Source of the DNA: an uncultured archaeon
Lineage (GTDB): Archaea > Iainarchaeota > Iainarchaeia > Iainarchaeales > 1-14-0-10-31-34
NCBI GenBank assembly: GCA_964608675.1
Contig: CAZSOZ010000001.1
Location: forward strand, 256,001 to 320,000
Length of the DNA stretch: 64,000 nt
Direction: 5' to 3'
Shown here: in pieces, positions 1,863 to 39,104 of the stretch
How the letters are laid out: every line of letters begins with the position of its first letter
Position numbering within the stretch: the stretch's first letter is position 1
Notes under the pieces: generated by a model
What the model saw: the letters and a program-made list of their open reading frames with translations, nothing else
Told to the model about the DNA's origin: nothing
Database searches by the model: none
Position numbers and translations under genes: made by a program

Positions 1863-3629
<1,767 letters not shown>

Positions 3630-3673
3630 TTTATATTCCCATTTATATGTTGTTGTTTATCCTTTTTATTTTT

Positions 3674-4774: not shown

Positions 4775-4781
4775 TTTTTTT

Positions 4782-9339: not shown

Positions 9340-9349
9340 TTAAATCATT

Positions 9350-9921: not shown

Positions 9922-10815
9922 ATGTTTTCAGTTAAAAGCAAGGCATCAGAAGAACAGGAATTATGGAAAAAAATAGAGGACTTAGAAAATTCCCTTAAAA
10001 AAGCTGAATCTGCCAATAAACCTGAAATCGAAATTCAGTTAGCAAAACTTAAATTTCAGTTATCTGAACTTCAGAAGCCTTCAAAAAAAAGAAATCTTGA
10101 TTTTGAAGTTGAACTGCAAAAAAAGCAGTCTCAATACAATGATTTATATGAAAAATACTCTAAATTAAGGCAGGCAGTAGGTTCAGTAAGTTCTGTTTCT
10201 GAAATAGAAGAAAAGCAGAAAGAAAAAGAACTAAAAGACAAACTGCATAAATTTCTTCTCAAAAAATATGCTGACATAATAAATGAAACCGAAAAAAAAA
10301 CTATTGGAGAAATAAAAGGTCTTATTGATCCAGATGATTTAAGCATTCAGTCTCTTTTGGCAGAATTAATTACAGAAAATTATTCTTTCAGCAAAAATTA
10401 TCTTTCAATGGCAAAAGAAGCCTATGATTTTGTTTTAAAAGAAATTTCTTTTGTTGAATCAGATATAAAAATCAATTTTTGGCTTACTCCTACTGAAATA
10501 ATAAAAAACAAATTTGCAGACGATGAAGATTTAGCTGTGTTTTTATGCACTTTGCTTTATGCTTTAGGAGACGAAAACGCGTTTGTGATTGTAGCTGAAA
10601 TGGAAAACCTTTCAAGCCATGCTTTTGTTATTACTGAACACAAAAACAAATTTTATTTGTTTGACTCTTCACAGAAAAAATCTTTTAATGAATTTTCAGG
10701 AAAAAAAGAAGAAATATTAGAAAATTATTCTTTCAGGGACTCAAAAATCAAGAGATTTTTATACAGATTTAATGCATTAGAATACGAGCAGTTTCCTGAA
10801 GAAAGAACAGAATGA
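9922..10815 (+). CDS. Coiled-coil plus transglutaminase-like domain protein, apparently lacking the catalytic Cys
   Basis: FWLTPTEI...ADDEDLAVFL..LL.ALG...HAFV...LFD matches the W..P.ET...GDCED.A / HA.V / D transglutaminase pattern, with Cys replaced by Asp. Likely start ATG 9922. Confidence 0.7.
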   Translation: MFSVKSKASEEQELWKKIEDLENSLKKAESANKPEIEIQLAKLKFQLSELQKPSKKRNLDFEVELQKKQSQYNDLYEKYSKLRQAVGSVSSVSEIEEKQKEKELKDKLHKFLLKKYADIINETEKKTIGEIKGLIDPDDLSIQSLLAELITENYSFSKNYLSMAKEAYDFVLKEISFVESDIKINFWLTPTEIIKNKFADDEDLAVFLCTLLYALGDENAFVIVAEMENLSSHAFVITEHKNKFYLFDSSQKKSFNEFSGKKEEILENYSFRDSKIKRFLYRFNALEYEQFPEERTE

Positions 10816-10873
10816 ATTATGTAGCCTTTTCATTTTATTTTTAAACCTTTTTTTCTTTTTCTATTATGTTTGT

Positions 10874-11021
10874 TTTCATAAAAATTATGAAACGACTCTT
10901 TTCTTTTTTCCGAAAAAGAAAAGTGCAAGCTGCAATTTAATCCCAAAAGGATTAAGTGCACACAAAAACTGAAAAAGTTTTTGTAGTGCCTAAAAGAAAA
11001 AAGGCACTAGTTCATAAAAAT
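10874..11021. repeat. Array of five abutting hairpins bounded by an 11-bp direct repeat (candidate MITE-like element or structured RNA)
   Basis: Inverted repeats at 10874-10892, 10898-10923, 10931-10960, 10962-10984 and 10984-11009. TTCATAAAAAT occurs at 10875-10885 and 11011-11021. Confidence 0.6.
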
Positions 11022-11041
11022 AATAATTTTTTCAGGGGGAT

Positions 11042-12022
11042 TTGATGATTAAAGTTGCAATAAATGGTTTTGGAAGAATTGGAAGGATTATTTTAAGAGA
11101 GGGATTAAACAGAAAAAACATTGATTTTGTTGCAGTAAATGATTTGACTGACAATAAAAATTTGGCGCATTTATTCAAGCATGATTCAGTTCACGGAACC
11201 TTTCAGGGAGAAGTTTCTTTTGATGAAAACAGCATTTCTGTTAACGGAAAAAAAATAAAGGTTTTTTCAGAACCCAACCCTGAAAAACTTCCCTGGAAAG
11301 AGCTTGGAGTTCAAGCAGTATTTGAATGCACAGGAAAATTAAGAAAAAACGAGGATTTTAAAAAGCATTTAATGGCCGGAGCAAAAAAAGTAATTGTTTC
11401 TGCTCCTGCTGAAGGAGTTGATTCAACTGTTGTTTTAGGTGTAAATGATTCAAAGGAATGGACTTCTTTATCTAATGCTTCCTGTACTACCAACTGTCTT
11501 GCTCCAGTTGCAATGGTTTTGGAAAAAGAATTTGGAATTGTTTCAGGAATGATGAACACAATTCATGCTTACACAAGCGATCAAAGACTTTTGGATGCTC
11601 CTCATAAGGATTTAAGGAGAGCAAGAGCTGCTGCTTTATCAATTATTCCTACAACTACTGGAGCAACAAAAGCAGTAGGAAAAGTTCTTCCTTCTGTTGA
11701 AGGAAAACTGGACGGAGTATCTTTAAGGGTGCCTGTTCCTGCAGGGTCGATAACAGATTTTGTTTGTGTGTTAAAAAAAGAAGCAACTGTTGAAGAAGTT
11801 AATTCAGCTTTAAAGAAGGCATCTGAAACTTATTTGAAAGGCATACTTGAATATACTGAAGAACCTTTGGTTTCAAGAGACATTATTGGAAACAAGCATT
11901 CAAGCATTGTTGATTCTTCTTTAACTCAAGTAGTAAACAAAAATATGGTGAGAGTTCTTTCGTGGTATGATAATGAATGGGGGTATTCTGCAAGAATGCT
12001 TGACTTAATTGAAAAAATTTGA
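11042..12022 (+). CDS. gap: Glyceraldehyde-3-phosphate dehydrogenase, class I (bacterial type)
   Basis: VAINGFGRIGR, catalytic NASCTTNCLAP, and WYDNEWGYS. Confidence 0.97.
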   Translation: MMIKVAINGFGRIGRIILREGLNRKNIDFVAVNDLTDNKNLAHLFKHDSVHGTFQGEVSFDENSISVNGKKIKVFSEPNPEKLPWKELGVQAVFECTGKLRKNEDFKKHLMAGAKKVIVSAPAEGVDSTVVLGVNDSKEWTSLSNASCTTNCLAPVAMVLEKEFGIVSGMMNTIHAYTSDQRLLDAPHKDLRRARAAALSIIPTTTGATKAVGKVLPSVEGKLDGVSLRVPVPAGSITDFVCVLKKEATVEEVNSALKKASETYLKGILEYTEEPLVSRDIIGNKHSSIVDSSLTQVVNKNMVRVLSWYDNEWGYSARMLDLIEKI

Positions 12023-25298: not shown

Positions 25299-26201
25299 GT
25301 GATGCCAGAAAAAAAGGATTTAAAGTACAGTATTATGGATAAAGCTTTGGGAGTAAAGCAGTCTGTTTCTAAATCAATTCCTTCTGTTCAATCCCTTAAA
25401 AAAAAACCTGTTTCAAAATCAAAGCCTGCTCCAAAGCCTGTAAAGAAATCTGTTCAAGAAAAAAACCATAGTTCTTTGATTGGAATTGCAGTTATTTTTT
25501 TGATTGTGGTTGTTGCATTAATTTTTGTTTTGGATGATTCTCTTGATTTAGATTTAGTTGATGCAGGAAAAGAAAATCAGCCTTCTTCTGCTGATGAAAT
25601 TCCTGAAAACCAAGAAGAAATCAAACTTTCTTTTGATGAAAGATACACTGAATGTGCAAGCAAGCCTTTGGTTCAGCATAAAGATGAATGCCTTCAAAAT
25701 CTTGCAGTTGAATTTAACAAAGAATTCTTGTGTGATGAATTAACTAATCTTGATTTAGAGAAATGCAGAAGGCTTGTCTGGAAAGCTAATGCAGTGGTTT
25801 CTTTGGAAATAGAAAAATGCAGTGAGCTTTTAACTGAATTAGATAAAATTGAATGCATTAAAGAAATTGCTTTATTGTCTTCTGATAAAACAATCTGCAG
25901 TAAAATAACTGAAGTGGTTTCTTCTGCTGATTTAACTCAGGTTAATTCATGTTATATTGCTTTGGCAGTTCAGGAAAAAGATTTGTCTGTTTGTGATTTA
26001 ATTGAGGGAAGCATGAAGGACACCTGTAAATTTAATACTGCTGTTGTTATTTCTAATCCTGATTTATGCATTGGATTTGAAGTTCCTACTATAAGAAATG
26101 ACTGTATTGCAAGAATCGCAAAAAACTTGAATGATGTTTCTTTGTGCAACAGAATAAGCAGTTCAATTCAAAAAAATAAGTGCATTAAAGATTTATCTTA
26201 A
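25299..26201 (+). CDS. Membrane-anchored Cys-repeat protein
   Basis: One TM, then about 6-7 repeats of about 25 aa of the form (K/R)D.C...(L/I)A......(L/I)C..(I/L). Confidence 0.75.
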   Translation: MMPEKKDLKYSIMDKALGVKQSVSKSIPSVQSLKKKPVSKSKPAPKPVKKSVQEKNHSSLIGIAVIFLIVVVALIFVLDDSLDLDLVDAGKENQPSSADEIPENQEEIKLSFDERYTECASKPLVQHKDECLQNLAVEFNKEFLCDELTNLDLEKCRRLVWKANAVVSLEIEKCSELLTELDKIECIKEIALLSSDKTICSKITEVVSSADLTQVNSCYIALAVQEKDLSVCDLIEGSMKDTCKFNTAVVISNPDLCIGFEVPTIRNDCIARIAKNLNDVSLCNRISSSIQKNKCIKDLS

Positions 26202-27353
26202 ATATAAATACAAGTAAATTGCTACTCCAAATAAAACAAAAAGCATTCCTGCAATTAATTCCTGTTTTATTTCTTCTTTTTCAAATATTATTTCAGTTTT
26301 TTCGCAGGAAACTTTTTTTCCTTCAAATTCCAGTGTGCATCCTAATTCAAATTTTCCTGCAGTGTTTGATTTAATTTTTGTTTTAAAGTAAACTATTTGT
26401 TTTGGGTGAATTGACGCAAATTTTTTTTCATTTTTTTTTAATTCAATTCCCTTTCCTAAAACAGTTATTTTTGCATTATGCACTGTTTCAAGTGAATTGT
26501 TTATTATCACTATTTCTATTTCGCTTTCTTCTTTTATTTGATTTATTTGTTTTTTCAGCATAATTATTGGTTCAAGTTTTTTTTTGTATTCTTTTGGAAG
26601 TATTTCAGGATAATTTGATTTAATTGTTTTTTCTTCTTTGAATTCATTCAAATAAACTGCTACTGCATTCGGAAGAAGTCTTGTATTTGGGTTTTTCAGC
26701 CTGTAAGTGAATTCCAGTGAAATTTCTTTTCCTGCCTGAATTTCCCCTGAAAACGAACTTTTTCCTTTTATTAATTCAATGTCTTTTCGTTCTTTGTCTC
26801 CGTCAGTTATTTTCACAAAAGTTGATTCATTTCCGTAATTTTTTAAAGTGGTTTTCACGTGTATTTCCTGTCCTACTACTAATTCTTTTGATACAACTTT
26901 TTTTGTAAAACTGCCTTCAGGAAAAAAAGCAGTCTTATAATTTCCTATTATTGAATCATTGTAAACATTTATTTTTGGAATGGAATCAGATGAATTTCCG
27001 CATATTCTGAGTTCATTTTTTGTTTTTAATTCTTCTTTTTTTAGTGTTATTCTTTGAAATTCGTTTCCTGTTCCTGATTCAATAATTGAAATCAGTTTAT
27101 TATTTAATTCAACTGTAATGTTTGCGTCTCCTTTAATGTTTGGAGTAAAAGTATAATGCACTGAAATAATAGTGAATTCCTCTGAATTAAATTCATCATA
27201 AAAAATTATTTTCATGCATTCCTGTGCGTTAGCTTCATGTATTTTAAGTTCTTCTTCATAGCCTATCGAAAAAAAAGTTTTTTCTTTTATTGTTTCTCCG
27301 CTGACTATTCCTGTTAAAAGCACAGCAAGAATTACAAGCATTTTTTTGTTCAT
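26193..27353 (-). CDS. Secreted Ig-like (DUF11/BatD-like) protein with a C-terminal TM anchor
   Basis: Signal peptide, VGQEIHVKTTLKNYG..STFVKITD and LLPNAVAVY segments, and a C-terminal hydrophobic helix. Confidence 0.65.
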   Translation of the reverse strand: MNKKMLVILAVLLTGIVSGETIKEKTFFSIGYEEELKIHEANAQECMKIIFYDEFNSEEFTIISVHYTFTPNIKGDANITVELNNKLISIIESGTGNEFQRITLKKEELKTKNELRICGNSSDSIPKINVYNDSIIGNYKTAFFPEGSFTKKVVSKELVVGQEIHVKTTLKNYGNESTFVKITDGDKERKDIELIKGKSSFSGEIQAGKEISLEFTYRLKNPNTRLLPNAVAVYLNEFKEEKTIKSNYPEILPKEYKKKLEPIIMLKKQINQIKEESEIEIVIINNSLETVHNAKITVLGKGIELKKNEKKFASIHPKQIVYFKTKIKSNTAGKFELGCTLEFEGKKVSCEKTEIIFEKEEIKQELIAGMLFVLFGVAIYLYLYLR

Positions 27354-27823
27354 TTTTTCCCTTTAATTTTTTTAAGTATTTGTTGTATGGAACTCTTTAA
27401 ATTTTTCTCGTTTTTTATTTCAATTATTTTTTTATAGTTTTTTTCTGCTTTTTTTTTGCAGTAATTTGTTTCCTCACAGTAAAGATTGTCCTGAATTTTT
27501 ATTTCAGTATAGCCTCTTTTTCTAAGCCTTTTTTCAAGAATCTTTCTTTTTGTTCTTAAAACAAAAAATAAATCTGTATTTATTTTCATTTCGCATAAAG
27601 TGTGGCCTTCAATTATTATGTTTTCTTTTTTTTTCAGGAATTCATTCATTTTTTTCTGGAATTTTTTTAAGTCTATTTCAACTTCGCTTCCTTTTCTTTT
27701 GCCTGTTTTTGTTTTTAAAGCAAAATCTTTTTCGTTTACTGTTTTCCAGTTTAATTTTTCCTTTAATTTTTCTGCTAAAACCGTTTTTCCTGTTCCAGGA
27801 ATCCCTGTAATTAAAACCTTCAT
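27350..27823 (-). CDS. Archaeal adenylate kinase AK6/Fap7-like P-loop kinase
   Basis: ITGIPGTGKT, IIIEGH and LEKRL.KRGY...KI.DN..CE. Confidence 0.88.
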   Translation of the reverse strand: MKVLITGIPGTGKTVLAEKLKEKLNWKTVNEKDFALKTKTGKRKGSEVEIDLKKFQKKMNEFLKKKENIIIEGHTLCEMKINTDLFFVLRTKRKILEKRLRKRGYTEIKIQDNLYCEETNYCKKKAEKNYKKIIEIKNEKNLKSSIQQILKKIKGKK

Positions 27824-28235
27824 TTTTTCACTTTTATTCTGTTTAATATTCCTCTAAAAAGAGAGCAAACAACTATTGGCATTTTAGTTAATTCAAATTC
27901 TATTGAATTAATTTTTTTTCCGTTTATTTCAACGGCTTTTCCTATTATTTCATTTTTTTTTACAAGTGAATCAAAATGCTTTGAATTGTCTCCTTTAACC
28001 AAAAATTTTTCTTTTTTTCTTTTCAGCATTCTGTGTAATAAAAATTTTTGGTTTCTGTAAAACATTATTATGTCTCCTGTTTTTAGTTTTTCTGATTCAA
28101 TTAACTTGATTTTTATTCTTGAATTTTCGTTGATTAAAGGAAGCATGCTTGTCCCTTTTGTTTGTACTTCAATTGTTTTTCCTTTATTGTTTTTTTTAAA
28201 CAAATCAACTGCCTGAATAAATGTTTTTTCTTTCA
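27820..28235 (-). CDS. S24/S26-family peptidase lacking an N-terminal TM anchor
   Basis: GTSMLPLI (catalytic Ser), GDIIMF, LHRML and VKGDN. Likely start MKEKTF at 28235. Confidence 0.85.
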
Positions 28236-28237
28236 TT

Positions 28238-29149
28238 TCATTCACAACTGAATTTTCTCTGCCTTTCAGAAACAAAATTGAGATTTCCAAGTTTTTCATT
28301 AAATGAAAGAAGGATATGCGGATTTTCTGCTTGCACGTAATAAATTTCTCTTAATTTTTTTTCTACTAACAGATTTATTTTGTATGCTTCCCTTCCTTCA
28401 AAGAAAATTTTTTTATCGAACTCAAATTTTATTTCTTTGTTTGGAACCATGAATTCTTTTGTTTCAATAAATTCATCGAAATTGAATTGTCCTCCTTCAT
28501 AATATAAGAAAAACAAGGGAAGCACAATATCTCTTTCAGTTAAATCAAAAAAATTTTTTTCTTTTAATCCTTTTTCAAGTGCGTTTTTACAGGATTCTGA
28601 ATAATTTAATTTAATTACTTTTGAGTTCTTGATCAGGATTTTTCCAAAAATTCTTTCTTTTGGAAACGAAACAGCAATAACTCCTTCAATAAAGTTTTCA
28701 TTTTTGTCCAAAACAAAAAAATTATAGTCTACGCTGAAATTAGAGTCAATTTTTTCATACAAAAAGTAATATTCCTGTCCTTTTTTGAATTCAATTTTCT
28801 TTAAAGGATTTATTTTTATTTCAAATTCTTTTGTTTTTCCGTCTGAAGGCATTATTTTCAAGAGAAAATTCATTCCTGTGATTATACACGGAAAAGAAAT
28901 TTCGTTTAATCCTTTTCTTAAATCAAAATAATTAACGCATTTTAATTCTTTTTCATTAAATACTTCTATTCTGGCTTTTTTTAATTCTTTTTGGGAAACA
29001 ATATTCAATTCAACTATTTTTTTTTCAAAGTCAAATGAATAACTATTTAATTCCAGTTCATAGTCATTTAATTTATTTTCTGGTTTTTTCTGAATGCATC
29101 CAAAAGCCAGCAAAAAAACAACCAATAAAAATAATGCTTTTTTTTTCAT
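28238..29149 (-). CDS. Hypothetical lipoprotein within the RiPP-like cluster
   Basis: MKKKALFLLVVFLLAFGC lipobox. Confidence 0.7.
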   Translation of the reverse strand: MKKKALFLLVVFLLAFGCIQKKPENKLNDYELELNSYSFDFEKKIVELNIVSQKELKKARIEVFNEKELKCVNYFDLRKGLNEISFPCIITGMNFLLKIMPSDGKTKEFEIKINPLKKIEFKKGQEYYFLYEKIDSNFSVDYNFFVLDKNENFIEGVIAVSFPKERIFGKILIKNSKVIKLNYSESCKNALEKGLKEKNFFDLTERDIVLPLFFLYYEGGQFNFDEFIETKEFMVPNKEIKFEFDKKIFFEGREAYKINLLVEKKLREIYYVQAENPHILLSFNEKLGNLNFVSERQRKFSCE

Positions 29150-29227
29150 TAAAAGAAATAGTGTTCTTTCTCTTTTTTAATATAACATTTACTAACTAAT
29201 TTGTTTTTTTGAAGTTAATTTAGCCAA

Positions 29228-29335
29228 TTACAAAGTAAAGCCGGTTTGTGGAGAAGCAGATATAAACATACTGTCATCCGGAGTAAAAACAATTTTTGTG
29301 TTTAATTTTTTTATTTCAGGCTTTTCGTATTTCAT
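29228..29335 (-). CDS. Putative RiPP precursor peptide (35 aa) MKYEKPEIKKLNTKIVFTPDDSMFISASPQTGFTL
   Basis: Hand-translated ATG 29335 to TAA 29228, below the ORF-track cutoff. The N-terminal YxxPxI is the RRE/PqqD-binding leader motif type. It lies between the radical SAM gene and the lipoprotein-peptidase genes. Confidence 0.72.
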   Translation of the reverse strand: MKYEKPEIKKLNTKIVFTPDDSMFISASPQTGFTL

Positions 29336-29393
29336 ACAATAAAAAAAACTTCATTACTATATAAATAATTATCTGTAGTTATTTTTTTTTGAT

Positions 29394-30470
29394 TTGATGG
29401 AAAAAATAAATAATTCAATTTATCACACGGATTTAATTTATACAAATAAATGCAATATTAGGTGCAGGCACTGCATTAATGACAGCTGTAAAGAAAAAAT
29501 AGGAAAACTTGGCTGCAACAAAGTTATTTCTATTTTAAATGAAATGCCAAAATTTAATGTTAAATATCTAGGAATAACAGGCGGAGAATCACTTATTTAT
29601 GAAAAAGAAATTCTTGAAATTATTTCTGAAGCAAAAAAACTTGGAATAGAATCTTCTTTAGTTTCAAATGGATTGTGGGCTTATAACAAAAAAAACACAA
29701 AAAAAGTGCTTTCAAAATTAACTAAAGCAGGGCTAAACAGGCTTAATGTAAGCTGTGATGAATTTCATTTAGAGCACGTTCCTATTCAGAATATTTTGAA
29801 TGTTTCCAGCGAAGCCAGAAAAATAAAAGACTTGGATTTTTTTCTTCGTTTTACTCAAACAAAAAACTATTCTGTTATAGATTTCATTTCAGAAAACAAA
29901 AAATTTTTTAAAAACGATTCTTCAAAAGATCCCTTAGGATTTTTTGTTCAACTGCTTTTGCCTTTAGGAAGGTCTTCAGTTAATGTTCCTGAACAGGATT
30001 ATTTTTTCTTTAAAAAATCAATTAAAACAAGATCTTGTAGTTTTAGAAGCAGTCCTTCAATTGATTTTAAAGGAACTTTTTCCATTTGCTGTTTAGGGTC
30101 TGATGCAGAAAACACGGCATTTCAGTTAGGAAACATTTATTCTGATGATATAAATGGTTTATTTGAAGCATACAAAAACAGCATTTTTGTTTTTTATCTT
30201 AAAGCAAAAGGACCTTATTTTATTGCAAAACTTGCAGAAAAAAATAATTTAAAAAAAATCAAGAAAACAAAAAAGTCTTTTGAGAAAAATATTGGAATAT
30301 GTGATTACTGCATACTTACTTTGAGTCAATATAAAAAAGAAGATATTTTAGAAATTTTGGAAGCTCATTTAAAGAAAAACAGAAAGGAAATGTTTAAGTG
30401 TTCAAAAGAAAATGTAAAGAATGCAGCAAAAAACTGGAAAGAATTGCAGACAAAACATTATTGGAAATAA
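29394..30470 (+). CDS. Radical SAM enzyme with a C-terminal auxiliary-cluster (twitch-like) domain, EpeE/YydG-like
   Basis: CNIRCRHC, ITGGE, SNGLW, VSCDEFH, LGR, and C-terminal C...ICC...GICDYC. Confidence 0.88.
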   Translation: MMEKINNSIYHTDLIYTNKCNIRCRHCINDSCKEKIGKLGCNKVISILNEMPKFNVKYLGITGGESLIYEKEILEIISEAKKLGIESSLVSNGLWAYNKKNTKKVLSKLTKAGLNRLNVSCDEFHLEHVPIQNILNVSSEARKIKDLDFFLRFTQTKNYSVIDFISENKKFFKNDSSKDPLGFFVQLLLPLGRSSVNVPEQDYFFFKKSIKTRSCSFRSSPSIDFKGTFSICCLGSDAENTAFQLGNIYSDDINGLFEAYKNSIFVFYLKAKGPYFIAKLAEKNNLKKIKKTKKSFEKNIGICDYCILTLSQYKKEDILEILEAHLKKNRKEMFKCSKENVKNAAKNWKELQTKHYWK

Positions 30471-30474
30471 TTAA

Positions 30475-30729
30475 TTATTTTTTAATCAGTTTAAAGGATT
30501 TTAGTTTTTTTATTAATTCTTTTGTATGACTTAAAGCTTTTTTTTCAGGTATCCCATATTTTTTTGCAAGTTTTAAAGCAATTTTTTTTTCATTATTTTT
30601 TCCGTTAATTTTTTTCCAGACAAAAGTTCCTGTTTTATTTAATACAAAAAAATCATTGTTTTCAGGATTAAAAACTATTGTTTCTCCGTCGACTTCTCTG
30701 GTTTCAACTTTCTTTGTTTTTTTAATCAT
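30475..30729 (-). CDS. PqqD-family RiPP recognition element (standalone RRE)
   Basis: REVDGETIVFNPENNDFFVLNKTGTFVWKKING......IA..LA.KY............I..L....LI. Likely start ATG 30729. Confidence 0.92.
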   Translation of the reverse strand: MIKKTKKVETREVDGETIVFNPENNDFFVLNKTGTFVWKKINGKNNEKKIALKLAKKYGIPEKKALSHTKELIKKLKSFKLIKK

Positions 30730-30771
30730 TTTTTCACTTTTTTGTTTTATATTATTAAAGAGCATTTGTTT

Positions 30772-31659
30772 TTAATTCAATTCTTTTTCAAGTTTTTCTT
30801 CAATTTTTTCCATTACTTTTTGTTGTATTGGAAGACGCAGTAAAAATGCAGGAACTTTTTGCATTAAATCAGAATACAAGCCAAGCCTTTCTTTTGCTTT
30901 AATTTTCGTGAAATTCAAGGGCCCATAATAATCATTCATAATTAATTTTGCGGTTCCCTCGAATTTTGAGAGTTTTTCTAGCTTTAATTTTTTTGCCTGA
31001 ATTATAAAAAAAACTGCTTTTAATTCAACTGGTTCACTGCTTTTTTTTTCCAGAATAAAAGGAACTGAATTAAAAGGACAGCTTTGAATAAAAAATTTTT
31101 TTCTTTTTTTAAACAAAAAATTGAGGTCTTCTCCTAAAATTAATCCTTGTTCGCACATTCTTGCAGTAGTGGTTTTTCCTGCTGTTGGAGCCCCGCAAAA
31201 AAGATATCCTTTATTTTTTTTTCTTACTGCTGATGAATGAATTAAACCGCATTCAAAATCATTAAAGTAAACTGCAATGCATTTTGAAAGATTGTCAATA
31301 AAAAAATTCCAAAAAAAAGGAGTGTTTGCATGTATTTCAATTTTTCCTTTGTTTTTGTTTAAATCAAGCCATCCAAAAAGATGCTCTTTTCCTTTTTCGC
31401 TTTTTTTTCCCTTGAATTTAATTAAGTTTTTTTTTTCATTAAACAATATTTTTTCATAAAAATTTCTTCTGTTTTTCAGTATTTGTTCATTTAAATCCAA
31501 GTTTCCTTTATAAAAAAAATACTCTAATTTTAAATCAGGTTTTTTGTTTGAAGCAAATTCTTTTTGAAATAAATTAAGGTAGTTTGAAATTTTTTTGTTG
31601 TTTGTTTTAATTGAAACAGTTTTTCCTGCAAAATAAAATTTAGATTCAAGCATTTTCAA
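30772..31659 (-). CDS. HPr kinase-like P-loop kinase (peptide-modifying type)
   Basis: LIHSSAV....GYLFCGAPTAGKTT...LGED and PVELKAVFFI.Q. Confidence 0.8.
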   Translation of the reverse strand: MKMLESKFYFAGKTVSIKTNNKKISNYLNLFQKEFASNKKPDLKLEYFFYKGNLDLNEQILKNRRNFYEKILFNEKKNLIKFKGKKSEKGKEHLFGWLDLNKNKGKIEIHANTPFFWNFFIDNLSKCIAVYFNDFECGLIHSSAVRKKNKGYLFCGAPTAGKTTTARMCEQGLILGEDLNFLFKKRKKFFIQSCPFNSVPFILEKKSSEPVELKAVFFIIQAKKLKLEKLSKFEGTAKLIMNDYYGPLNFTKIKAKERLGLYSDLMQKVPAFLLRLPIQQKVMEKIEEKLEKELN

Positions 31660-31693
31660 TCAACTTAAATATAGAAACTTCTTTAATTTTAAA

Positions 31694-32773
31694 TTAGTTT
31701 ACTATTGAATGCCTTATTTTCCAGAAAAGCGGAAGAATAAATGAAAAAAAAACAACTTTTATTTTTTTCTTTAAGCCGTCTGTCCAATGCAATCTGTTTT
31801 TTGTGTTTTGATAATTATAAAAAAAAGCGTTTTTCTTTTTTATCAGTTTTTTAATTGTTTTTTTCCTTAAATAATTCAGTTTGCGTTTATCTGAAATTTT
31901 TTTTAGTTTTTTTATTCCTTTGATTTCTTTTCCGAATAATTCTTTAAGCAGTTCATTAAAATAAACCAGTTCTTCTACTGCATTATATTTCACTGCTTTT
32001 TCTTTGAGTTTTTTTTCGTTTAATCCTTTTGAATTAATTTCATTTACGTCAACCAAAGATTCAAATATTTTGTTAAATGGATCGTGATAAACACTGCTTA
32101 AAACAGAAATAATTACGTTGTCTTCTTTGCAGGGAATCCTTAAATTATTTATTTTAGTGGAATCTCTCCATATTTCATTTAAGTTTATTTGAAATGAATT
32201 AACCGGAAAAAACAAGCTTTTGTGGGGTTCTGCAATATATGTAAAACCGTTTTCTTTTTTTTTCATTAAAGGATAATGCTGTAAGTTTTCATAAAACCAA
32301 TTAAAAAACACTTTTTTGGTTTTTTTTGATTTTTCCCAGAAGTCTGCTGAATCAGAAAAATATTTTTTTTTCTTTAAAATCCTTTTTGTTTTATTGTAGT
32401 TTTTTTCTTTAATTAAAAAATCAAAGTCTGCTGAAACTCTTAACATTGTTTTGCTGTAAATCGAATAATTCAAAGCAGTTCCTTTTATTGCAATAAAATT
32501 TATTCTTTTTTTTTGGAATTCTTCTGCAAGACAGTCAATTTCTTTTTTATACAAGAAATTTTTTAATAAAATTTTTTTGTTTATTAAATTTAATTCTTTT
32601 GCTGTTTTCGGAGCAAGTTTTTTGTTTATTTTTTTTGAAATAAATCCTGTTATTCTGTGATAAACACATAATTCCAAGAATTTTTTTTGATTAATTCCTT
32701 TATAATCTTTTTTTTTGGTTTTTTCCTGTATTAATTTAATTAACAGTTTTTCTTCTGTTTTCATTTGAATCAT
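31694..32773 (-). CDS. Nucleotidyltransferase family protein (NTP_transf_5-like)
   Basis: HRI, IAIKGTAL...Y....LRVSADFDFLI and E.H. Confidence 0.85.
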   Translation of the reverse strand: MIQMKTEEKLLIKLIQEKTKKKDYKGINQKKFLELCVYHRITGFISKKINKKLAPKTAKELNLINKKILLKNFLYKKEIDCLAEEFQKKRINFIAIKGTALNYSIYSKTMLRVSADFDFLIKEKNYNKTKRILKKKKYFSDSADFWEKSKKTKKVFFNWFYENLQHYPLMKKKENGFTYIAEPHKSLFFPVNSFQINLNEIWRDSTKINNLRIPCKEDNVIISVLSSVYHDPFNKIFESLVDVNEINSKGLNEKKLKEKAVKYNAVEELVYFNELLKELFGKEIKGIKKLKKISDKRKLNYLRKKTIKKLIKKKNAFFYNYQNTKNRLHWTDGLKKKIKVVFFSFILPLFWKIRHSIVN

Positions 32774-32833
32774 TTTTATTATATTTTGGTTCTACTTTAA
32801 ATTAAATAACAAAGAAATAAAAAAAGTGATTTA

Positions 32834-33973
32834 ATGAAAATTTTGTTTGTTTCCCCGTATTTTTTTCCGTTTGTAGGAGGTGCAGAAAATCATCTTCTTA
32901 GAATCTGCAGTGAATTAAAGGAATTAAATCATGAAATAATTGTTTTTACTTCAACTAAAAATTCGCAGTCAAACAAAAAAATGAAAATTATTGTTTCTCC
33001 TCCTTTGTTCACTTATTCTAATACTCCTTTTAATTTTTGGGAAAACCAAATAAATAAAGTGATTGAAGAAGAAAAACCCGATGTTGTTGTCGGCTCTCTT
33101 TCCACTCCATTTATGGCTGATTTTTCTGCAGTAATCACAGAAAAAAAAAGGATTCCTTTTTTTTTAATGTACTATAATGATTTTATTCCAAAAAACTTTT
33201 TTGAAAAAGTTTTTCTTGAATTTTACCGGTTTTTTTTTATGAACAAAACCCTTAATTCAGCAGACAAAATTATTGTTCTTTCTGAGTATTATGCAAAAAA
33301 TTCTTCTGTTTTAAATCCTTTTTCAAAGAAAATTTCTGTGGTTTCTCCTTTTTTGCGTTTAAGGGAATTTAATTCTTTAAATGAATACAAAAAAACTTTT
33401 CCTGAAAACAAAGTGGTTTTGTTTGTCGGCGCATTAAACAAAGGCCAGAATTACAAAGGATTAAATTATTTAATTAAAGCAGTTTCTTTGGTTAAAAAAA
33501 TTTTTCCTGAAATAAAACTGGTTGTAGTTGGAAAAGGAAACAACATGAATTATTTCAGAAAACTGGCAGAAAAAAAAGGAGTTCAGTCAAATGTTTTTTT
33601 TGCCGGAGAAATTTCTCAAAAAAAACTTTTGTCTTTTTATTCTGAATGCAAAACTCTTGTTCTGCCTTCTGTTAATGATTCAGAAGGATTCGGCTTGGTT
33701 TTTTTAGAAGCAATGGCTTTCTCCAAACCTGTAATTGGAACCACTGCAGGAGGAATTCCCGCAATAGTTAAACATAATTTTAATGGTTTTTTAGTTGAAC
33801 CAAAAAACGAAGCAAAATTAAGCAAAGCAATTGAATTCATTTTAGAAAATGAAAAAAAAGAAAAAAAAATGGGGGAAAACGGCTTTAATTATCTGAAAAA
33901 ATTTTCTTCTAAAAAAAGCATTAATAAATTAATTAAATTGTTTGAGAGTGCATTAAATGAAAAAAAACAATAA
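32834..33973 (+). CDS. Glycosyltransferase family 4
   Basis: YFFPFVGGAE, LFVGAL...YKG and EGFGLVFLEAMA..KPVI.T..GG. Confidence 0.93.
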   Translation: MKILFVSPYFFPFVGGAENHLLRICSELKELNHEIIVFTSTKNSQSNKKMKIIVSPPLFTYSNTPFNFWENQINKVIEEEKPDVVVGSLSTPFMADFSAVITEKKRIPFFLMYYNDFIPKNFFEKVFLEFYRFFFMNKTLNSADKIIVLSEYYAKNSSVLNPFSKKISVVSPFLRLREFNSLNEYKKTFPENKVVLFVGALNKGQNYKGLNYLIKAVSLVKKIFPEIKLVVVGKGNNMNYFRKLAEKKGVQSNVFFAGEISQKKLLSFYSECKTLVLPSVNDSEGFGLVFLEAMAFSKPVIGTTAGGIPAIVKHNFNGFLVEPKNEAKLSKAIEFILENEKKEKKMGENGFNYLKKFSSKKSINKLIKLFESALNEKKQ

Positions 33974-35552
33974 AATTTTGATTTTATTAATTTTGTTTTG
34001 TTTGTTTGCAGTTCTTGTTATTCAGTTAACTTCCCCAACCTCTCTTTACAGAGATCCGTGGATGTTCAGGCATTTGGGGGCAGCAGAACTTGTTTTGAAA
34101 ACCGGCAATTATGTTCTTTCTGATGAATTTTTAGTTAAATTCAATTTTTTTGGAGAAGATTTTTTTCTTAACAATAACTGGTTTTTTTATTTTATTCCTG
34201 TTTTATCAGGAGTAATTTTTCATTTTTTGTCAGGCTTGAATATTTATTTTGTTTTTAATTCCTTTTATTTTTTGATTTTAATTCTGGCTTTATCTCATTT
34301 TATTTTGTTTAAAAAAATTTTTGGCCGCAACCGGATTGCTTTGGGGCTGTCTTTAATTTTTGTTTTGTTTCCTTTTGAGCCACTTTACTATAAGATTTCA
34401 GTTCATGGCTGGATTTTTGTAAGAATTTTTTCTGCGATAGCAATGTATTTTTTTGCAAGATTTTTGCAGGATTTTTCATTTAAATCAAAAAACTTTTTGT
34501 TTCTTTTATTTTTTTCTTTTCTGGGAATTTATTCTGACAAAAGCGCTTTTGTTTTAGTTCTGCTTCCAGTTATCTTGTTTTTTCTTTTTTATTTTTTCTT
34601 TGAAAGAAAAAAAGCTTCCAGTAAAACATCTTTGAATTATTTTTTTCTGGTTTTTTTGGTTTTGGTTGTTCTGTCTATTTTTTCTGTTTTTTATCAGCTT
34701 TTCTGGAGTTTTTTAGGAACCCTTTATAATTTCTTAAATTTTAATTTTATTCCTTCTTTTATTAAACCAAGCCTTCCTTTTTCTGAATTTTATTTAGCAA
34801 AAAACTTTTCTTATATTTTAATAAGATACCTTATTCCTTTTTTTGCGGTTTTTTCTCTTATTTTATTGAATTTCAAAAAAATAAAAGAACTTGCTTTAAA
34901 AAACAAAATAATTAAGGCATTTATTTTTTCTCAGGCACTATTTTATTTTTTTGCGGGTTTTTTTTCTTTGTTTTCTTTTGCTTTTGTTTCCAGCAGAGGA
35001 GCTTCAATGCTTTTCTTGTTTTTTTCTTTGCTGGCTTTTTTGGGGTTGTCTCAAATGAAAAAAAGTCTGCTAAAATTTTTTTTGATTTCATTTTTTTTCT
35101 TTTTTGTTTTAATTCTTCCTTTTCTTTATTTTACTCAAACTCCGCAGTTTCAGTATGAACAATTCAACGAAAAGCATGTTTCTTCTTTGGATTGGGTGAA
35201 CGAAAATTTATCTGAAACGGCAATTGTTTATTCAGATGTAAAAATGGCTAAAGCGGTTTCACTGAAAACCAGTTTGTTGGGATTTAACCCTAAATTTGAA
35301 TTTGGTTTTGTTATGGAAAACTATATTATGCCAGTTTATTTTACTGATGACTTAAATAAAGTTTTATTTTCATTTAAAGAAAAAGGAATAACTCATTTGC
35401 TTTTAACAAAGGAAATGAATTCTTTGATGGTTCAGCCTGCAAACGAGTTAATGAAGCCTGCAACTCATCTCAAAAAATTTGATTTTTCTGAAAACTTTAA
35501 CAAAGTTTTTGAAAACAAGCAGGCAGGAATTTACGAAATAAAATACAATTAA
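33957..35552 (+). CDS. Polytopic membrane protein, possibly a GT-C-fold glycosyltransferase
   Basis: About 12 TM segments, DPW..H in the first loop, and a soluble C-terminal domain (LDWV.EN...VYSD...KGITHL...F.KVFEN...IYEI). Confidence 0.6.
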   Translation: MKKNNKILILLILFCLFAVLVIQLTSPTSLYRDPWMFRHLGAAELVLKTGNYVLSDEFLVKFNFFGEDFFLNNNWFFYFIPVLSGVIFHFLSGLNIYFVFNSFYFLILILALSHFILFKKIFGRNRIALGLSLIFVLFPFEPLYYKISVHGWIFVRIFSAIAMYFFARFLQDFSFKSKNFLFLLFFSFLGIYSDKSAFVLVLLPVILFFLFYFFFERKKASSKTSLNYFFLVFLVLVVLSIFSVFYQLFWSFLGTLYNFLNFNFIPSFIKPSLPFSEFYLAKNFSYILIRYLIPFFAVFSLILLNFKKIKELALKNKIIKAFIFSQALFYFFAGFFSLFSFAFVSSRGASMLFLFFSLLAFLGLSQMKKSLLKFFLISFFFFFVLILPFLYFTQTPQFQYEQFNEKHVSSLDWVNENLSETAIVYSDVKMAKAVSLKTSLLGFNPKFEFGFVMENYIMPVYFTDDLNKVLFSFKEKGITHLLLTKEMNSLMVQPANELMKPATHLKKFDFSENFNKVFENKQAGIYEIKYN

Positions 35553-35864: not shown

Positions 35865-38800
35865 TTACTTTAATCTGACTGCATCTAAATCTCTTATTGC
35901 GTTTGAATTAATTCTGAATTTGTTTGAAACATATCTTGCGAATTCTATTGCAGTGTCTTTTTCTCCGTGGTTTACAATTATTTTTTTGGGTTTTGGATTT
36001 AAATTTCTTATATAGTTTACTAATTGGTTTCTGTCTGAGTGCCCTGAAAACCCTTCAACGGTTTCCACTCTCATGTTAATTGGCAGTTCTCTTGTTTTTC
36101 CATTATCGCTTATTGGAGTTTTTTTTAGTCCTTTTTGTATTCTGTTTCCTAATGATCCTTCTCCCTGATATCCGACAAACACCATTGTGTTTTTTGGGTT
36201 TTCTGCCATTTTTTGAAAGTATTGAACTGAAGGTCCTCCTGTAAGCATTCCTGAAGAAGCAATAATTATTGCTTCTTTTTCTTCTAAAATTTTGTCTCTT
36301 TCTTTTGCGTTTGCTGTCTGAAATAATTCTGAAGTAAAAGGAGAATCATTTTGGAGTACTCTTCTTTGAACTCCTTTTCTTAAGTATTCTGGATAAGCTG
36401 TATGAATTGCGCTTGCTTCTTTTGTCATTCCGTCAACAAACACTTTTCCGTCAAGCATTCCTTTTCTATAATATTCTTCTATTACCAGCATTATTTCTTG
36501 GGCTCTTCCAACAGAAAAAACCGGAATCAAAGTGTTTCCTCCTTTATGCATTGTTTCTTTTAAGATTCTGATTAATTGTTCTTCTGCTTTGTTTCTGTCC
36601 TGCTGTATGTCGTCTTTTCCTCCGTAAGTTGATTCAATAATCAAAGTTTCTAGTCTTGGATAATTAATGTCTACATTATTAAAGAGTCTTGTAAAACCAA
36701 ATTTAATGTCTCCGCTGTATACTAGATTGTGTGCTCCTTCTCCTATATGAAAATGAACTGAAGCACTTCCTAAAATATGTGATGCATTATGTAAAGTTAT
36801 TCTCATGTCAGGAGCAATATCTGTTACTTCTCTGTATTCACGTGTAATGCAGTATTTTAGCATTTCTTTTACGTCTCTTTCTGTGTATGGAGGTTCTTTT
36901 CCTTCTTTAATTAATACATCAATATAATCAAACTGCAGTAATGCCATTAAATCTCTTGTAGGTTTAGTATTATGCAAACAAATTGGAGCATTCCCTCCAA
37001 CAAAATTTTCATCTTCATCTACTGAAAAGTCATAAACATGGCCATTGCTTGCTTCAACTTTCTTTATTTTTGTAATAGGCAAGAAACTTAGATCAGATTC
37101 AGCCAATTTTGACAGGTTTTCTTGAATTGAATATGTGCTTCCCTTGGTGTTTACTATCCACCCTTTATCAATCAACGCTTTTAGTCTTTCTTTTGTAACA
37201 CTTTTCCTTTCTTTGAGTCTGTGATAATACCATTCTTTGTTGAAGTTTGTTTCTTTAAGGGGAATTATTTCAGTCGACTTTTTATCTAGTCTTTTTGTTC
37301 CTCCAAAATCACTTAAGTTCAAGGTTATTCTATGTGCAATATTTTTTGTTTTTGCTGAGACAACATGTCTTGAAAATAAGGTATAATTGATTCCAAGTTG
37401 GGTTAGAACATATGAAATATCAGAAACTAATCTTTCACTTACACTTATAGCGTGTGCAGTTTTGTTTAACAAATTTACTGTTCCGTCTCCCTTAAAATAT
37501 GCATCAACAAATTGCATTTTAAGTTCATTTGATACATTGAAAACTATTTCTGGGACATGTTTACTTGTTGCTTTTTTATATTCTTTGAAAAAGTAGTTTT
37601 TAAACAAATCCCTTACTACTATTGAATTAACTGAAACTGAAATAGTATTTCTATTTTTAACTGCTTCCTTTGCTTCTAGACCGAAAACTGTTTTAATGCA
37701 GTTCTTTAGTTCTTTAACTATTTCTTCTTCTTTTAATCCAAAAGTAAACCTAACAGCCCTTTTTTCAATGTGCCCTTCTGAAGCAAAGTAACCCAAAATT
37801 CTTAAGAGTTCTTTGTTGACCTCTAATACTTGGGGGATGCCTTTGCTTTGTTTTGTTTTAATTTTTCCATTTTTGAATAAATATTTGTTTTCATTCATTT
37901 TTCCCTTTAAGTTAATTAACTTAGTTTCTTGTGTTGGGATTTTTTGAGGCACTACTAATTGGTCACCTTCAGAAAGCTCGTTGACTTTAATTTCTTTTAT
38001 TTTTCCGTTTTTCAATACAAAAACACTGTGGCTTCCTGTCACTTTAACTTTTCTCCCTGTTTTTGCAGTGATTTCAAATAAGTCATCATCAACTGAATGT
38101 CTTATAACTTCTTTTACTTTTTTAAATCTGACTTTATAGTCTTTTTTAGAAAAACAAGGCACTTCAATATTTCTTTCAGGTTTCGCTGCAATAAATTCAT
38201 TGTAAGGTAATTCTTCTTTTTCTTTTGATTCATCAATTATTGAATCAATTACTTTTCCAATTTTTTCAGTTTTAATTACGCCATCTTCTTTAATCATTAC
38301 TTGTTCTTCATAATCTACGCTGCAATAAACAGGCCCTCGATAACCCATTTTAAATAATAATGGAATTAAACCTGAATGATCTAAATGCGCGTGGCTTATT
38401 ACTACTCCATCTAGCTGGTCTAATGGAAACCTTATTGCTTCAAGGTAAGGGTATGGTTGTTCAATATTTGCTACGTCTACTCCCACATCTAATAACACTT
38501 TTGTTTCAGGTGTTTCAATCATTAAACAGCTTTTTCCTACTTCCCTGAATCCACCTAATGCAGTTAATCTAACCCAGCCATTGTTTTTGTTTTTTTCTCT
38601 GTAAATTTTTTTTGCTGTTTCATTTAAAATTTTTTTTCTTTCTGAACTGTATTTATGAAGATGGTGCCTTATTCCTTTGAGTATTTCTGATTCGCTTGTA
38701 GGGCTTCTTAAAATATTAGGCGTCCAGCCTGTCTTTAAAATGATTTCTTTTGATGTTTCTCCGCCTTTTCCTATTACTAATCCGGGTTTTATTGCATCAA

Positions 38801-39104
38801 TTACTACTTCGCTGAAAGCAGGATTAAAGTAAATTTCTTTTATTTCTGCGCTTTCAGGAACCAATTCCTGAATTACTTTTTTTGCATGCATTTCGTCTGA
38901 CAAAAGGCTTTTGTCTGTTCTGATATTTACTCTTTTTTTTAATTCAAATGCAATTTTTGCAACAAAGTTTTCGTTTTCAAAAAAAGCTTTTGGATTTCTT
39001 GTATAAATTGCTACTTCAGGGCCTTCCATTTCAATATTTGTTATTTGAGTTTCTTTTGGAAGGTTTGACTGAATTATTTCTTTTACTTCTTTTAATGCAT
39101 CCAT
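35865..39104 (-). CDS. fttA: Beta-CASP ribonuclease aCPSF1/FttA (KH + MBL + beta-CASP) containing an intein
   Basis: KPGLVIGKGG KH motif, LGGFREVG, SHAHLDH, HILGS, YSGD and FSGHSD. It is next to the proteasome beta gene and is 628 aa after intein removal. Confidence 0.95.
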   Translation of the reverse strand: MDALKEVKEIIQSNLPKETQITNIEMEGPEVAIYTRNPKAFFENENFVAKIAFELKKRVNIRTDKSLLSDEMHAKKVIQELVPESAEIKEIYFNPAFSEVVIDAIKPGLVIGKGGETSKEIILKTGWTPNILRSPTSESEILKGIRHHLHKYSSERKKILNETAKKIYREKNKNNGWVRLTALGGFREVGKSCLMIETPETKVLLDVGVDVANIEQPYPYLEAIRFPLDQLDGVVISHAHLDHSGLIPLLFKMGYRGPVYCSVDYEEQVMIKEDGVIKTEKIGKVIDSIIDESKEKEELPYNEFIAAKPERNIEVPCFSKKDYKVRFKKVKEVIRHSVDDDLFEITAKTGRKVKVTGSHSVFVLKNGKIKEIKVNELSEGDQLVVPQKIPTQETKLINLKGKMNENKYLFKNGKIKTKQSKGIPQVLEVNKELLRILGYFASEGHIEKRAVRFTFGLKEEEIVKELKNCIKTVFGLEAKEAVKNRNTISVSVNSIVVRDLFKNYFFKEYKKATSKHVPEIVFNVSNELKMQFVDAYFKGDGTVNLLNKTAHAISVSERLVSDISYVLTQLGINYTLFSRHVVSAKTKNIAHRITLNLSDFGGTKRLDKKSTEIIPLKETNFNKEWYYHRLKERKSVTKERLKALIDKGWIVNTKGSTYSIQENLSKLAESDLSFLPITKIKKVEASNGHVYDFSVDEDENFVGGNAPICLHNTKPTRDLMALLQFDYIDVLIKEGKEPPYTERDVKEMLKYCITREYREVTDIAPDMRITLHNASHILGSASVHFHIGEGAHNLVYSGDIKFGFTRLFNNVDINYPRLETLIIESTYGGKDDIQQDRNKAEEQLIRILKETMHKGGNTLIPVFSVGRAQEIMLVIEEYYRKGMLDGKVFVDGMTKEASAIHTAYPEYLRKGVQRRVLQNDSPFTSELFQTANAKERDKILEEKEAIIIASSGMLTGGPSVQYFQKMAENPKNTMVFVGYQGEGSLGNRIQKGLKKTPISDNGKTRELPINMRVETVEGFSGHSDRNQLVNYIRNLNPKPKKIIVNHGEKDTAIEFARYVSNKFRINSNAIRDLDAVRLK
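36969..38321 (-). mobile_element. Intein (451 aa) with a LAGLIDADG homing endonuclease
   Basis: Splits the conserved GPVYC/TKPTRDL. It starts SVDYEE and has block B VTGSHSVF, endonuclease motifs LGYFASEG and FVDAYFKGDG, block F VYDFSV, and ends LHN before Thr(+1). Confidence 0.95.

Follow-up and report, generated by a model that had tools for sequence, protein, structure and literature searches.

Does a short open reading frame (ORF) lying between divergent genes of an archaeal genome encode a peptide, and if so, what would be done to that peptide? The ORF in question occupies 29228..29335 on the minus strand of a 64,000-nucleotide stretch (here the window) of contig CAZSOZ010000001.1, from an uncultured member of the Iainarchaeota. 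It had been picked out, in an original prediction made from the letters of the window, as a candidate precursor for the neighboring radical S-adenosylmethionine (radical SAM) enzyme, and its 35-residue translation reads as reported there (Table 1). Very probably, the ORF is a genuine gene, coding for a small peptide that neighboring enzymes would modify and trim; this judgment rests on its conservation and not its length. We further consider it likely to be the precursor (A peptide) of a peptide that is synthesized on ribosomes and modified after translation (a RiPP), made by a system that resembles the one for linear polyphosphorylated peptides (LPPs) and adds to it an epipeptide-type radical SAM enzyme. 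The interpretation offered in the original prediction is, as a whole, supported.

A conserved gene for a short peptide

By itself the ORF is not beyond chance. Short ORFs are abundant in this AT-rich DNA, with 146 of at least 25 aa listed in 16 kb, and the ORF is missing from the called-gene proteins returned for the contig. Its conservation, however, is beyond chance. Orthologs of the radical SAM enzyme occur with 41-43% identity in four of five same-genus genomes and with 34% in a second genus (genome G006), and at all five full-length ortholog loci a small ORF of 29-34 aa adjoins the radical SAM gene. The translations begin x-Y-[E/K]-K-P-x-I-[K/R]-K-[L/I]-[N/S]-x-K and diverge afterwards. 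The genome of the window has a single copy. In another genome, G004, a contig edge carries the nucleotidyltransferase gene described below and a kinase-like gene that breaks off after residue 60; loss of peptide and radical SAM gene by deletion was rejected there, as the copy is cut by an assembly break.

Of 196 genomes in the order, a profile built from the six peptides matches 6, every one belonging to the same family as the window's genome, with one further marginal match (E 5e-4). Run against 1.84 billion representative proteins, the profile returned seven peptides of 30-38 aa, four of them new. It also matched an 830-aa protein in five stretches, regarded as spurious. Metagenome scans were less productive: tblastn confirmed none of the 595 pattern matches obtained with the peptide alignment, and a scan with closer sequences gave two loci, both ending at a contig edge before the peptide region.

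A conserved leader with a variable core had been set beforehand as a test of the prediction, and this is the pattern observed. Across ten non-redundant peptides (the near-duplicate P0010 left out), pairwise identity is 74% from Tyr3 to Lys14, 20% over positions 15-18, and 14% beyond. Residues Y3, K5, P6, I8, and K14 are invariant. The YxxPxI leader and the Cys-free, Ser/Thr-rich second half first described for the window copy thus recur in the relatives, whose predicted cores run from 8 to 19 residues (about 17 in the window peptide), consist of Ser plus Thr to 36%, and contain no Cys, His, or Tyr. Synonymous codons vary at the invariant residues (TAC/TAT for Tyr, CCT/CCA/CCC for Pro, ATA/ATT for Ile, AAA/AAG for Lys), and over the twelve leader codons pairwise comparison counts 55 synonymous and 52 non-synonymous differences. 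In the window's genus the peptide gene is divergent from the radical SAM gene and is followed by a lipoprotein gene; in G006 it stands on the same strand, directly upstream of the radical SAM gene. The peptide gene moves between genera, yet stays attached to its radical SAM partner. In genome G002 (locus L020) two tandem YydG-like radical SAM copies, at 10038-11096 and 11111-11950 (+), lie beside a single peptide gene, the contig ending inside the second.

The predicted boundary between leader and core rests on two observations. With the cut placed after Thr18 in the window copy, position -3 is V, A, or G and position -1 is T, A, S, or G in all ten peptides, a pattern spotted independently, ahead of any comparison with the LPP paper. 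The same cut puts Tyr3 at -16, Pro6 at -13, and Ile8 at -11, matching Y-16, P-13, and V-11 of the LPP precursor LppA (PMC13381572). Thr18 itself is unconserved among the relatives.

The gap between the peptide gene and the radical SAM gene, put at about 60 nt in the original prediction, is 58 nt if the latter starts at TTG 29394 and 61 nt if it starts at ATG 29397. A TATA-box-like element lies within it, and A/T boxes of this kind occur 20-40 nt upstream at all six loci. The element is consistent with an archaeal promoter and a leaderless or nearly leaderless mRNA, although in AT-rich DNA such a match is not decisive; it may also act as a bidirectional promoter common to both genes.

Probable leader recognition by a PqqD-type domain

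A leader of the YxxP type calls attention to a discrete PqqD-type RiPP recognition element (RRE) encoded nearby. The original prediction had this gene at 30475-30729; the gene is present, its ORF extends to 30765, and 30729 is the second Met. The best solved relatives of the RRE profile are TbiB1 (1e-18), TfuB1 (1.8e-11), LppB (9x8z, 1.3e-10), and PbaB1 (9x90, 1.9e-10), all of them binders of [Y/W]xxP leaders (chain identities as given in PMC13381572). Asn33 of LppB, which contacts the leader Pro, aligns with Asn43 of the window RRE, and Asn occupies the position in five of seven sequences (LppB residue numbers here are chain numbering minus 18).

In a structure prediction of peptide with RRE, a check proposed along with the original prediction, the complex scored 0.60, against 0.02 for the best control, and contacts agreed between runs to at least 81%; the result was graded as weak support, with a partner pLDDT (predicted local distance difference test) of 53-54. 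Among the calibration cases, 58 of 80 solved complexes and 2 of 110 mismatched pairs came up to the mark, and scores of 0.60 or less were given by only 7 of the 80 solved complexes and by both passing mismatches. The pass may reflect mere likeness to solved RRE-leader complexes.

The radical SAM enzyme

TIGR04078 (YydG) is the best family for the radical SAM protein, at 107.9 bits, below the equivalog cutoff of 300, with MoaA following at 53 bits. Residues 17-304 align to the YydG structures 8ai1-8ai6, with low identity. Invariant in all six aligned radical SAM sequences are C20/C24/C27 of the CxxxCxxC motif, C215, the pair C232-C233, and C303/C306. In the alignment the CC pair falls on YydG chain positions 247/248, which would correspond to native Cys222/223 if the chain carries a 25-residue N-terminal tag. 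In YydG, Cys223 is the hydrogen donor and is recycled by the C-terminal [4Fe-4S] cluster (PMC5682303). A word-indexed protein search with the window enzyme returned itself and one distant match at 27% identity.

The likeness to the epipeptide system is thus that its epimerase is both the best family and the best solved relative, over nearly the full length, with cluster cysteines and CC pair conserved, and that the substrate is Cys-free and contains hydrophobic residues. The suggestion that hydrophobic residues of the core are possible epimerization sites agrees with this placement of the enzyme as a putative peptide epimerase. The differences are that recognition of the precursor here appears to proceed through a separate RRE and a YxxP leader, and that the cluster is without a YydH-type protease or a YydIJ ABC transporter. 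The peptide itself matches no NCBIfam family.

Kinase-like protein, nucleotidyltransferase, peptidase, and lipoprotein

The kinase-like protein is assigned at the level of fold. Its model (pLDDT 83.4) retrieves with Foldseek ATP-dependent phosphoenolpyruvate carboxykinases (PEPCK; E 9e-10, TMq about 0.5) and the HPr kinase/phosphatases 1knx, 1kkl, and 1kkm (E 3e-6 to 3e-5). The PEPCK and HPr kinase/phosphatase families have one P-loop fold in common. An ortholog from an Omnitrophota locus (L055, below) matches Hpr_kinase_C at 6.8e-6, below cutoff. Database relatives of the protein carry a precomputed label, PF27840, and a recently named family may cover it. The nucleotidyltransferase-like protein, of family NTP_transf_5, is kept in the cassette in genomes G001, G003, G005, and G006 and at the distant loci L055, L051, and L039.

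The peptidase scores 42 bits against sigpep_I_arch, the cutoff being 51.85, with weaker matches to sod_Ni_protease (nickel superoxide dismutase maturation) and SipW. Translation probably begins at Met22 (28236), immediately past the upstream gene's stop codon. The GxSMxP, HR, and KGD motifs with Ser, His, and Asp are retained, and the protein is without a transmembrane segment: the maximum 19-residue hydropathy is 0.9-1.5 among the cluster peptidase paralogs, versus 2.5 in the genome's other signal peptidase I. That separate housekeeping enzyme is encoded elsewhere in the genome and passes the family cutoff.

The lipoprotein gene is kept beside the peptide gene in both genera, and the two are predicted to be co-transcribed. 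The lipoprotein model consists of beta-sandwich domains (pLDDT 75.7). Fold and Atlas searches gave generic beta-sandwich or CARDB-like leads and no specific structural match, and a word-indexed sequence search found just the protein itself.

The cassette and its surroundings

The host is a DPANN archaeon of the Iainarchaeota, with a genome of 1.2 Mb at 94% completeness, and the window encodes FttA/aCPSF1, the PolD large subunit, geranylgeranyl reductase, and an archaeal Hel308-type helicase. No Rfam family and no tRNA was found in the window. The sequencing runs listed for this DNA are four DNA runs of a single microbial-mat study, one of them possibly its source; no RNA run is among them, which bears neither way on expression. 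The FttA/aCPSF1 protein (35865-39104, minus strand) is 1079 aa long and carries an intein with a LAGLIDADG homing endonuclease (Intein_splicing 317-712, LAGLIDADG_3 528-596); its orthologs in G001, G003, and G005 have 628 aa, and matches to them are split in two around the intein.

Within the genus, synteny extends over the entire region. Just seven genes stay together in the second genus, and these constitute the conserved cassette: the peptide, the YydG-like radical SAM enzyme, the PqqD-type RRE, the HprK-like kinase, NTP_transf_5, the soluble signal-peptidase-I-like protease, and the lipoprotein. Table 1 collects them with their flanking genes.

Table 1. Coordinates of the peptide gene, its parts, and the genes around it (window positions)
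Feature	Position	Strand	Remarks
Precursor peptide gene	29228..29335	-	35 aa plus stop, ATG start; translation MKYEKPEIKKLNTKIVFTPDDSMFISASPQTGFTL
Predicted leader, residues 1-18	29282-29335	-	inferred boundary
Predicted core, residues 19-35	29231-29281	-	PDDSMFISASPQTGFTL
TATA-box-like element	29358..29365	-	TTTATATA; ends 23 nt upstream of precursor ATG
YydG-like radical SAM enzyme, putative peptide epimerase	29394..30470	+	Radical_SAM (Pfam); best family TIGR04078 (YydG)
Discrete PqqD-type RRE	30475-30765	-	PqqD, 4.6e-13; closest NCBIfam models are lasso PqqD families
HprK/PEPCK-fold P-loop kinase-like protein (LppK-like)	30772-31659	-	Walker A GAPTAGKTT; weak ScmC match
NTP_transf_5 nucleotidyltransferase-like protein (LppN/PsmN-like role)	31694-32773	-	PF14907, 4.6e-23
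Soluble archaeal-type signal-peptidase-I-like serine peptidase (LppS-like putative leader peptidase)	27820..28299	-	Peptidase_S24, sigpep_I_arch
303-aa lipoprotein	28238..29149	-	78 nt downstream of peptide gene, same strand; signal ends LLAFGC; no family
GT4 glycosyltransferase	32834-33973	+	Glycos_transf_1, 1e-45; adjoins cassette, membership uncertain
531-aa multi-transmembrane protein, possibly GT-C	33957-35552	+	no Pfam or NCBIfam match; adjoins cassette, membership uncertain
AAA_18 Fap7-like kinase	27350-27823	-	overlaps upstream gene by 4 nt
386-aa membrane protein	26193-27353	-	overlaps upstream gene by 4 nt

The flanks change from one genus to the other. The GT4 glycosyltransferase and 531-aa genes are syntenic only within the genus, and the G006 cassette has GT2 and DegT genes in their place. 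Atlas look-alike clusters of the 531-aa protein in DPANN and other archaea score 0.98-0.99, one of them with PMT_2 (GT-C) on 12% of its members, and the gene occurs as two tandem copies in G001. In G006 (locus L021, 12347-18590) a B12-binding radical SAM gene lies between the kinase-like gene and the nucleotidyltransferase gene, followed by a methyltransferase, a GT2 glycosyltransferase, another radical SAM enzyme, and a DegT sugar aminotransferase; the two genera thus have different tailoring sets. On the other side, the AAA_18 and 386-aa genes show 60-73% identity within the genus (64-73% for AAA_18), are absent from the G006 cassette, and are probably housekeeping passengers. The AAA_18 gene was also considered as the peptide kinase. 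Since its synteny is confined to the genus and it is the genome's best match to PRK03839 (Fap7-like), this is unlikely, and the HprK-like gene is the more likely peptide kinase.

Related loci outside Archaea

A set of 80 loci with YydG-like radical SAM enzymes was assembled, and BLASTP searches with the cluster proteins were run on 76 distant loci. Partner genes were found by BLASTP at one locus only, L055, and hidden Markov models added L039 and L051, for 3 of 80 loci. L055, from a single-cell genome of the Omnitrophota, has all five enzyme types of the archaeal cassette. It encodes an NTP_transf_5 protein, an RRE, a radical SAM/SPASM enzyme, a tandem pair of peptides whose leaders contain SYLRPELKK, a YydG-like radical SAM enzyme, an HprK-like protein, and a fusion of a radical SAM/SPASM enzyme with a signal peptidase I (SpI)-like domain. 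The fusion (8070-9656, plus strand) is 528 aa long with the signal-peptidase-I-like domain at its C-terminus, an arrangement that implies, on sequence grounds, a physical coupling of radical modification to leader removal.

L051, a lasso-like cluster from a metagenome-assembled genome of the Acidobacteriaceae, has at 1707-5792 (+) a peptide with the sequence TYSKPDI in it, an HprK-like protein, a YydG-like radical SAM enzyme, a B1-type RRE, NTP_transf_5, and a B2-type Transglut_core3 protease. No cyclase was found within the 9.7 kb examined, and RND efflux genes (OEP/HlyD/AcrB) come next. L039 (Bryobacteraceae) has the radical SAM enzyme, RRE, and NTP_transf_5, on a contig that begins inside the radical SAM gene. 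A screen for YxxP motifs at 33 full-length loci gave convincing peptides only in L051 and L055. The other loci with YydG-like enzymes (Methanosarcinaceae, Bathyarchaeia, Mesorhizobium, and others) probably use other precursors.

Comparison with known systems

LPPs were described from the lppA-K-B-S-D-N cluster of Paenibacillus alginolyticus by Popov et al. (Nat Commun 2026, PMC13381572). According to that paper the core genes encode an archaeal-type SpI-like peptidase LppS (Ser29/His68/Asp93), an RRE LppB, an HprK-like kinase LppK, an NTP transferase LppN, and an MsbA-like exporter LppD. The leader follows the consensus YxxPxVLxHQxIxFET, then xxS; cleavage falls after Thr(-1) in an RRE-dependent manner, and Ser3 of the core is polyphosphorylated. 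LppK did not accept Thr, and LppN was inactive on the peptide in the heterologous system. LPP clusters occur in glycosyltransferase-rich loci, and the final product and its role are described as still unknown. LPPs are, in the authors' words, "restricted to the Bacillota", and the main text nowhere mentions "radical SAM" (all PMC13381572).

The window cassette has four of the five LPP core gene types, the radical SAM enzyme and lipoprotein being extra. The kinase is HprK-like at fold level, the peptidase is an archaeal-type SpI-like Ser/His/Asp enzyme, and the NTP transferase is likened to LppN by role. In both systems the precursor is short, its YxxPx[V/I] leader conserved and its core variable; both lack a macrolactam synthetase and have neighboring glycosyltransferase genes. 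They differ in host (a DPANN archaeon here, Bacillota there), in the presence of a YydG-like radical SAM enzyme within the conserved cassette, and in core length, 8-19 residues here versus 45.

In lasso peptides of the pseudomycoidin and paeninodin type, a kinase, PsmK, and a nucleotidyltransferase-like protein, PsmN, modify the precursor at a Ser hydroxyl while the leader is still attached (PMC9266682). The window shares with these a B1-type RRE for a [Y/W]xxP leader, an HprK-like kinase, and a nucleotidyltransferase-like enzyme. It is, however, without a cyclase or B2 cysteine protease, leader removal being assigned to the serine peptidase instead, and where the phosphorylated residue of those lasso peptides is the C-terminal Ser (PMC9266682), the window peptide ends in Leu. 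That Ser and Thr of the core are candidate kinase or glycosylation sites, as first proposed, gains by analogy from the presence of an HprK-like kinase and NTP transferase like those of the phosphorylated LPP and lasso systems (PMC13381572, PMC9266682).

Weak matches link the cassette to a further system, the uncharacterized SynChlorMet cassette: the kinase-like protein to ScmC (TIGR04249, E 1.8e-4) and the RRE to ScmD (TIGR04248, E 1.9e-8). At 20.9 bits versus a cutoff of 125 and 34.4 bits versus a cutoff of 100, both are far below family membership. The SynChlorMet cassette also pairs ScmC and ScmD with radical SAM/SPASM enzymes. A literature search, outside of which most subscription journals lay, found no paper on that cassette, no description of HprK, radical SAM, RRE, and leader peptide together or of an archaeal or DPANN version, and no characterized modified peptide natural product from DPANN archaea. 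A 2025 survey of archaeal RiPPs, in the text available of it, names DPANN a single time, and RREs and kinases not at all (PMC12144867).

Points against the proposed reading

Several findings weigh against an LPP-like pathway with an epimerase. Classical signal peptidases would be blocked by Pro at +1, the residue found there in the window core. The window leader is without the HQ and FE of the LPP consensus and has only YxxPx[I/V] and the Thr(-1) spacing in common with it. The core Ser3 is not conserved: position 3 is D, N, S, T, K, T, T, D, T, and G in the ten peptides, with Ser once. In place of an MsbA-like exporter there is the conserved lipoprotein; no MsbA-like exporter or ABC-transporter domain was found in the ten proteins of 26193-35552, nor in the G006 cassette. 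The RRE is no closer to LppB than to the lasso B1 proteins, its profile in fact scoring higher against TbiB1, and descent of the cassette from the LPP clade is therefore not established. LppB Asp70, which contacts the leader Tyr, aligns with His80 of the window RRE, the other six of the seven sequences having Asp; possibly His80 represents an altered hold on the leader Tyr. Finally, the radical SAM score of 108 bits, where the YydG cutoff is 300, leaves room for another radical chemistry.

Alternative explanations

This last point leads to the alternative that survives best, in which precursor and cassette are as proposed and the radical SAM enzyme is something other than an epimerase, for example forming a link from C-alpha or C-beta to a Ser/Thr oxygen, dehydrogenating, or altering the backbone of a core rich in Ser, Thr, Gly, and Ala. 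Low identity to YydG and the high Ser plus Thr content of the cores would suit such an enzyme, as would the diverse radical chemistry of related cassettes (the B12-binding enzyme in G006 and two SPASM enzymes in L055). Against these stand the near full-length YydG match and the invariance of all five aligned C-terminal cysteines, including the pair that holds the hydrogen donor Cys223 (PMC5682303); moreover, the cores offer no conserved residue as cross-link partner and none of Cys, His, or Tyr. We regard this alternative as unlikely.

Considerably less probable is an arrangement of epipeptide type only, in which the radical SAM enzyme alone modifies the peptide while the kinase-like protein, NTP_transf_5, and the glycosyltransferases serve another substrate such as cell-surface glycans. 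Glycosylation genes do adjoin the cassette in both genera, and the inactivity of LppN on its peptide (PMC13381572) fits as well. Yet even as the flanks change, kinase-like protein, RRE, and NTP_transf_5 travel with peptide and radical SAM enzyme in two genera of archaea and at one locus each in Omnitrophota and Acidobacteriota, and homologous kinases act on peptides in the LPP and paeninodin-type systems (PMC13381572, PMC9266682).

That the peptide is a lasso precursor whose cyclase and B2 protease are encoded elsewhere is highly improbable and was rejected. The original prediction held that the lasso pattern is lacking and that the peptide is not a lasso. For the core, where a lasso peptide would begin with G/A/S/C and have Asp or Glu at position 7-9, the first statement stands; Thr18 of the window copy, on the other hand, does sit at the spacing from YxxP of the lasso Thr(-2), though it is unconserved. 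The YxxPxI leader, an RRE closest to lasso B1 proteins, and the B2-type protease kept at the Acidobacteriota locus also point toward lasso systems. The second statement agrees with the gene content: the cluster has no cyclase or B2 protease, with 0 of 10 cluster proteins matching Transglut_core3, and the sole Asn-synthase-like gene (PF00733) is about 165 kb distant. In the window core, D occurs at positions 2-3 only, and in five of the ten peptides the predicted core lacks any Asp or Glu, which makes an isopeptide ring impossible, so that the product must stay linear.

Equally remote, and rejected on conservation at the orthologous loci, is a chance untranslated ORF in an AT-rich promoter region between divergent genes: abundant short ORFs and absence from the called genes would allow it, but frame, length, and leader are conserved at 5/5 loci, changes at invariant residues are synonymous, the fast-diverging 3' half stays open, and the G006 gene has switched strand relative to the radical SAM gene while remaining adjacent.

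Proposed pathway

For the likely case of a precursor in an LPP-like system with an epipeptide-type enzyme, we infer a series of steps, all from homology and context. The leader, through Y3-x-x-P6-x-I8, would bind the RRE as an added beta-strand, as in lasso B1 proteins and LppB, and the RRE would present the peptide to the tailoring enzymes. The HprK-like kinase would phosphorylate core Ser or Thr near the cleavage site, and the NTP_transf_5 protein, possibly with the neighboring glycosyltransferases, would decorate the phosphate. The YydG-like enzyme would abstract a C-alpha hydrogen from core residues, with a hydrogen returned from a Cys of the conserved CC pair, converting L- to D-residues at positions of the Ile/Val/Ala/Phe type. 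Lastly, the soluble SpI-like Ser/His/Asp protease would cut after Thr18, freeing a linear core of about 17 residues. Binding of leader by RRE and cleavage of the leader are the best supported of these steps; epimerization is the least certain, with chances about even.

Significance

A wider picture can be drawn, which we hold to be doubtful and distinctly less likely than the pathway itself. In it the Iainarchaeota, as host-dependent DPANN archaea, would make short linear peptides with D-amino acids due to the YydG-like enzyme and a phosphate-linked glycan due to the HprK-like kinase, NTP_transf_5, and the adjoining glycosyltransferases, pass them to the surface lipoprotein, and use them in cell contact or conflict. 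The cassette with radical SAM enzyme, in Archaea, Omnitrophota, and Acidobacteriota, would then be a distinct and older RiPP class, and the Bacillota LPPs an offshoot without radical SAM enzyme that kept the archaeal-type peptidase.

On the likely reading of the locus, one real gene is added to an annotation that had not called the precursor ORF, and the LPP-type pathway would gain relatives in Archaea, Omnitrophota, and Acidobacteriota together with a radical SAM enzyme of the peptide-epimerase type. The ten peptides would provide short natural substrates, with cores of 8-19 residues, that are easy to synthesize and assay. The cassette also supports the view that a soluble signal-peptidase-like enzyme guided by an RRE may be a general route of leader removal.

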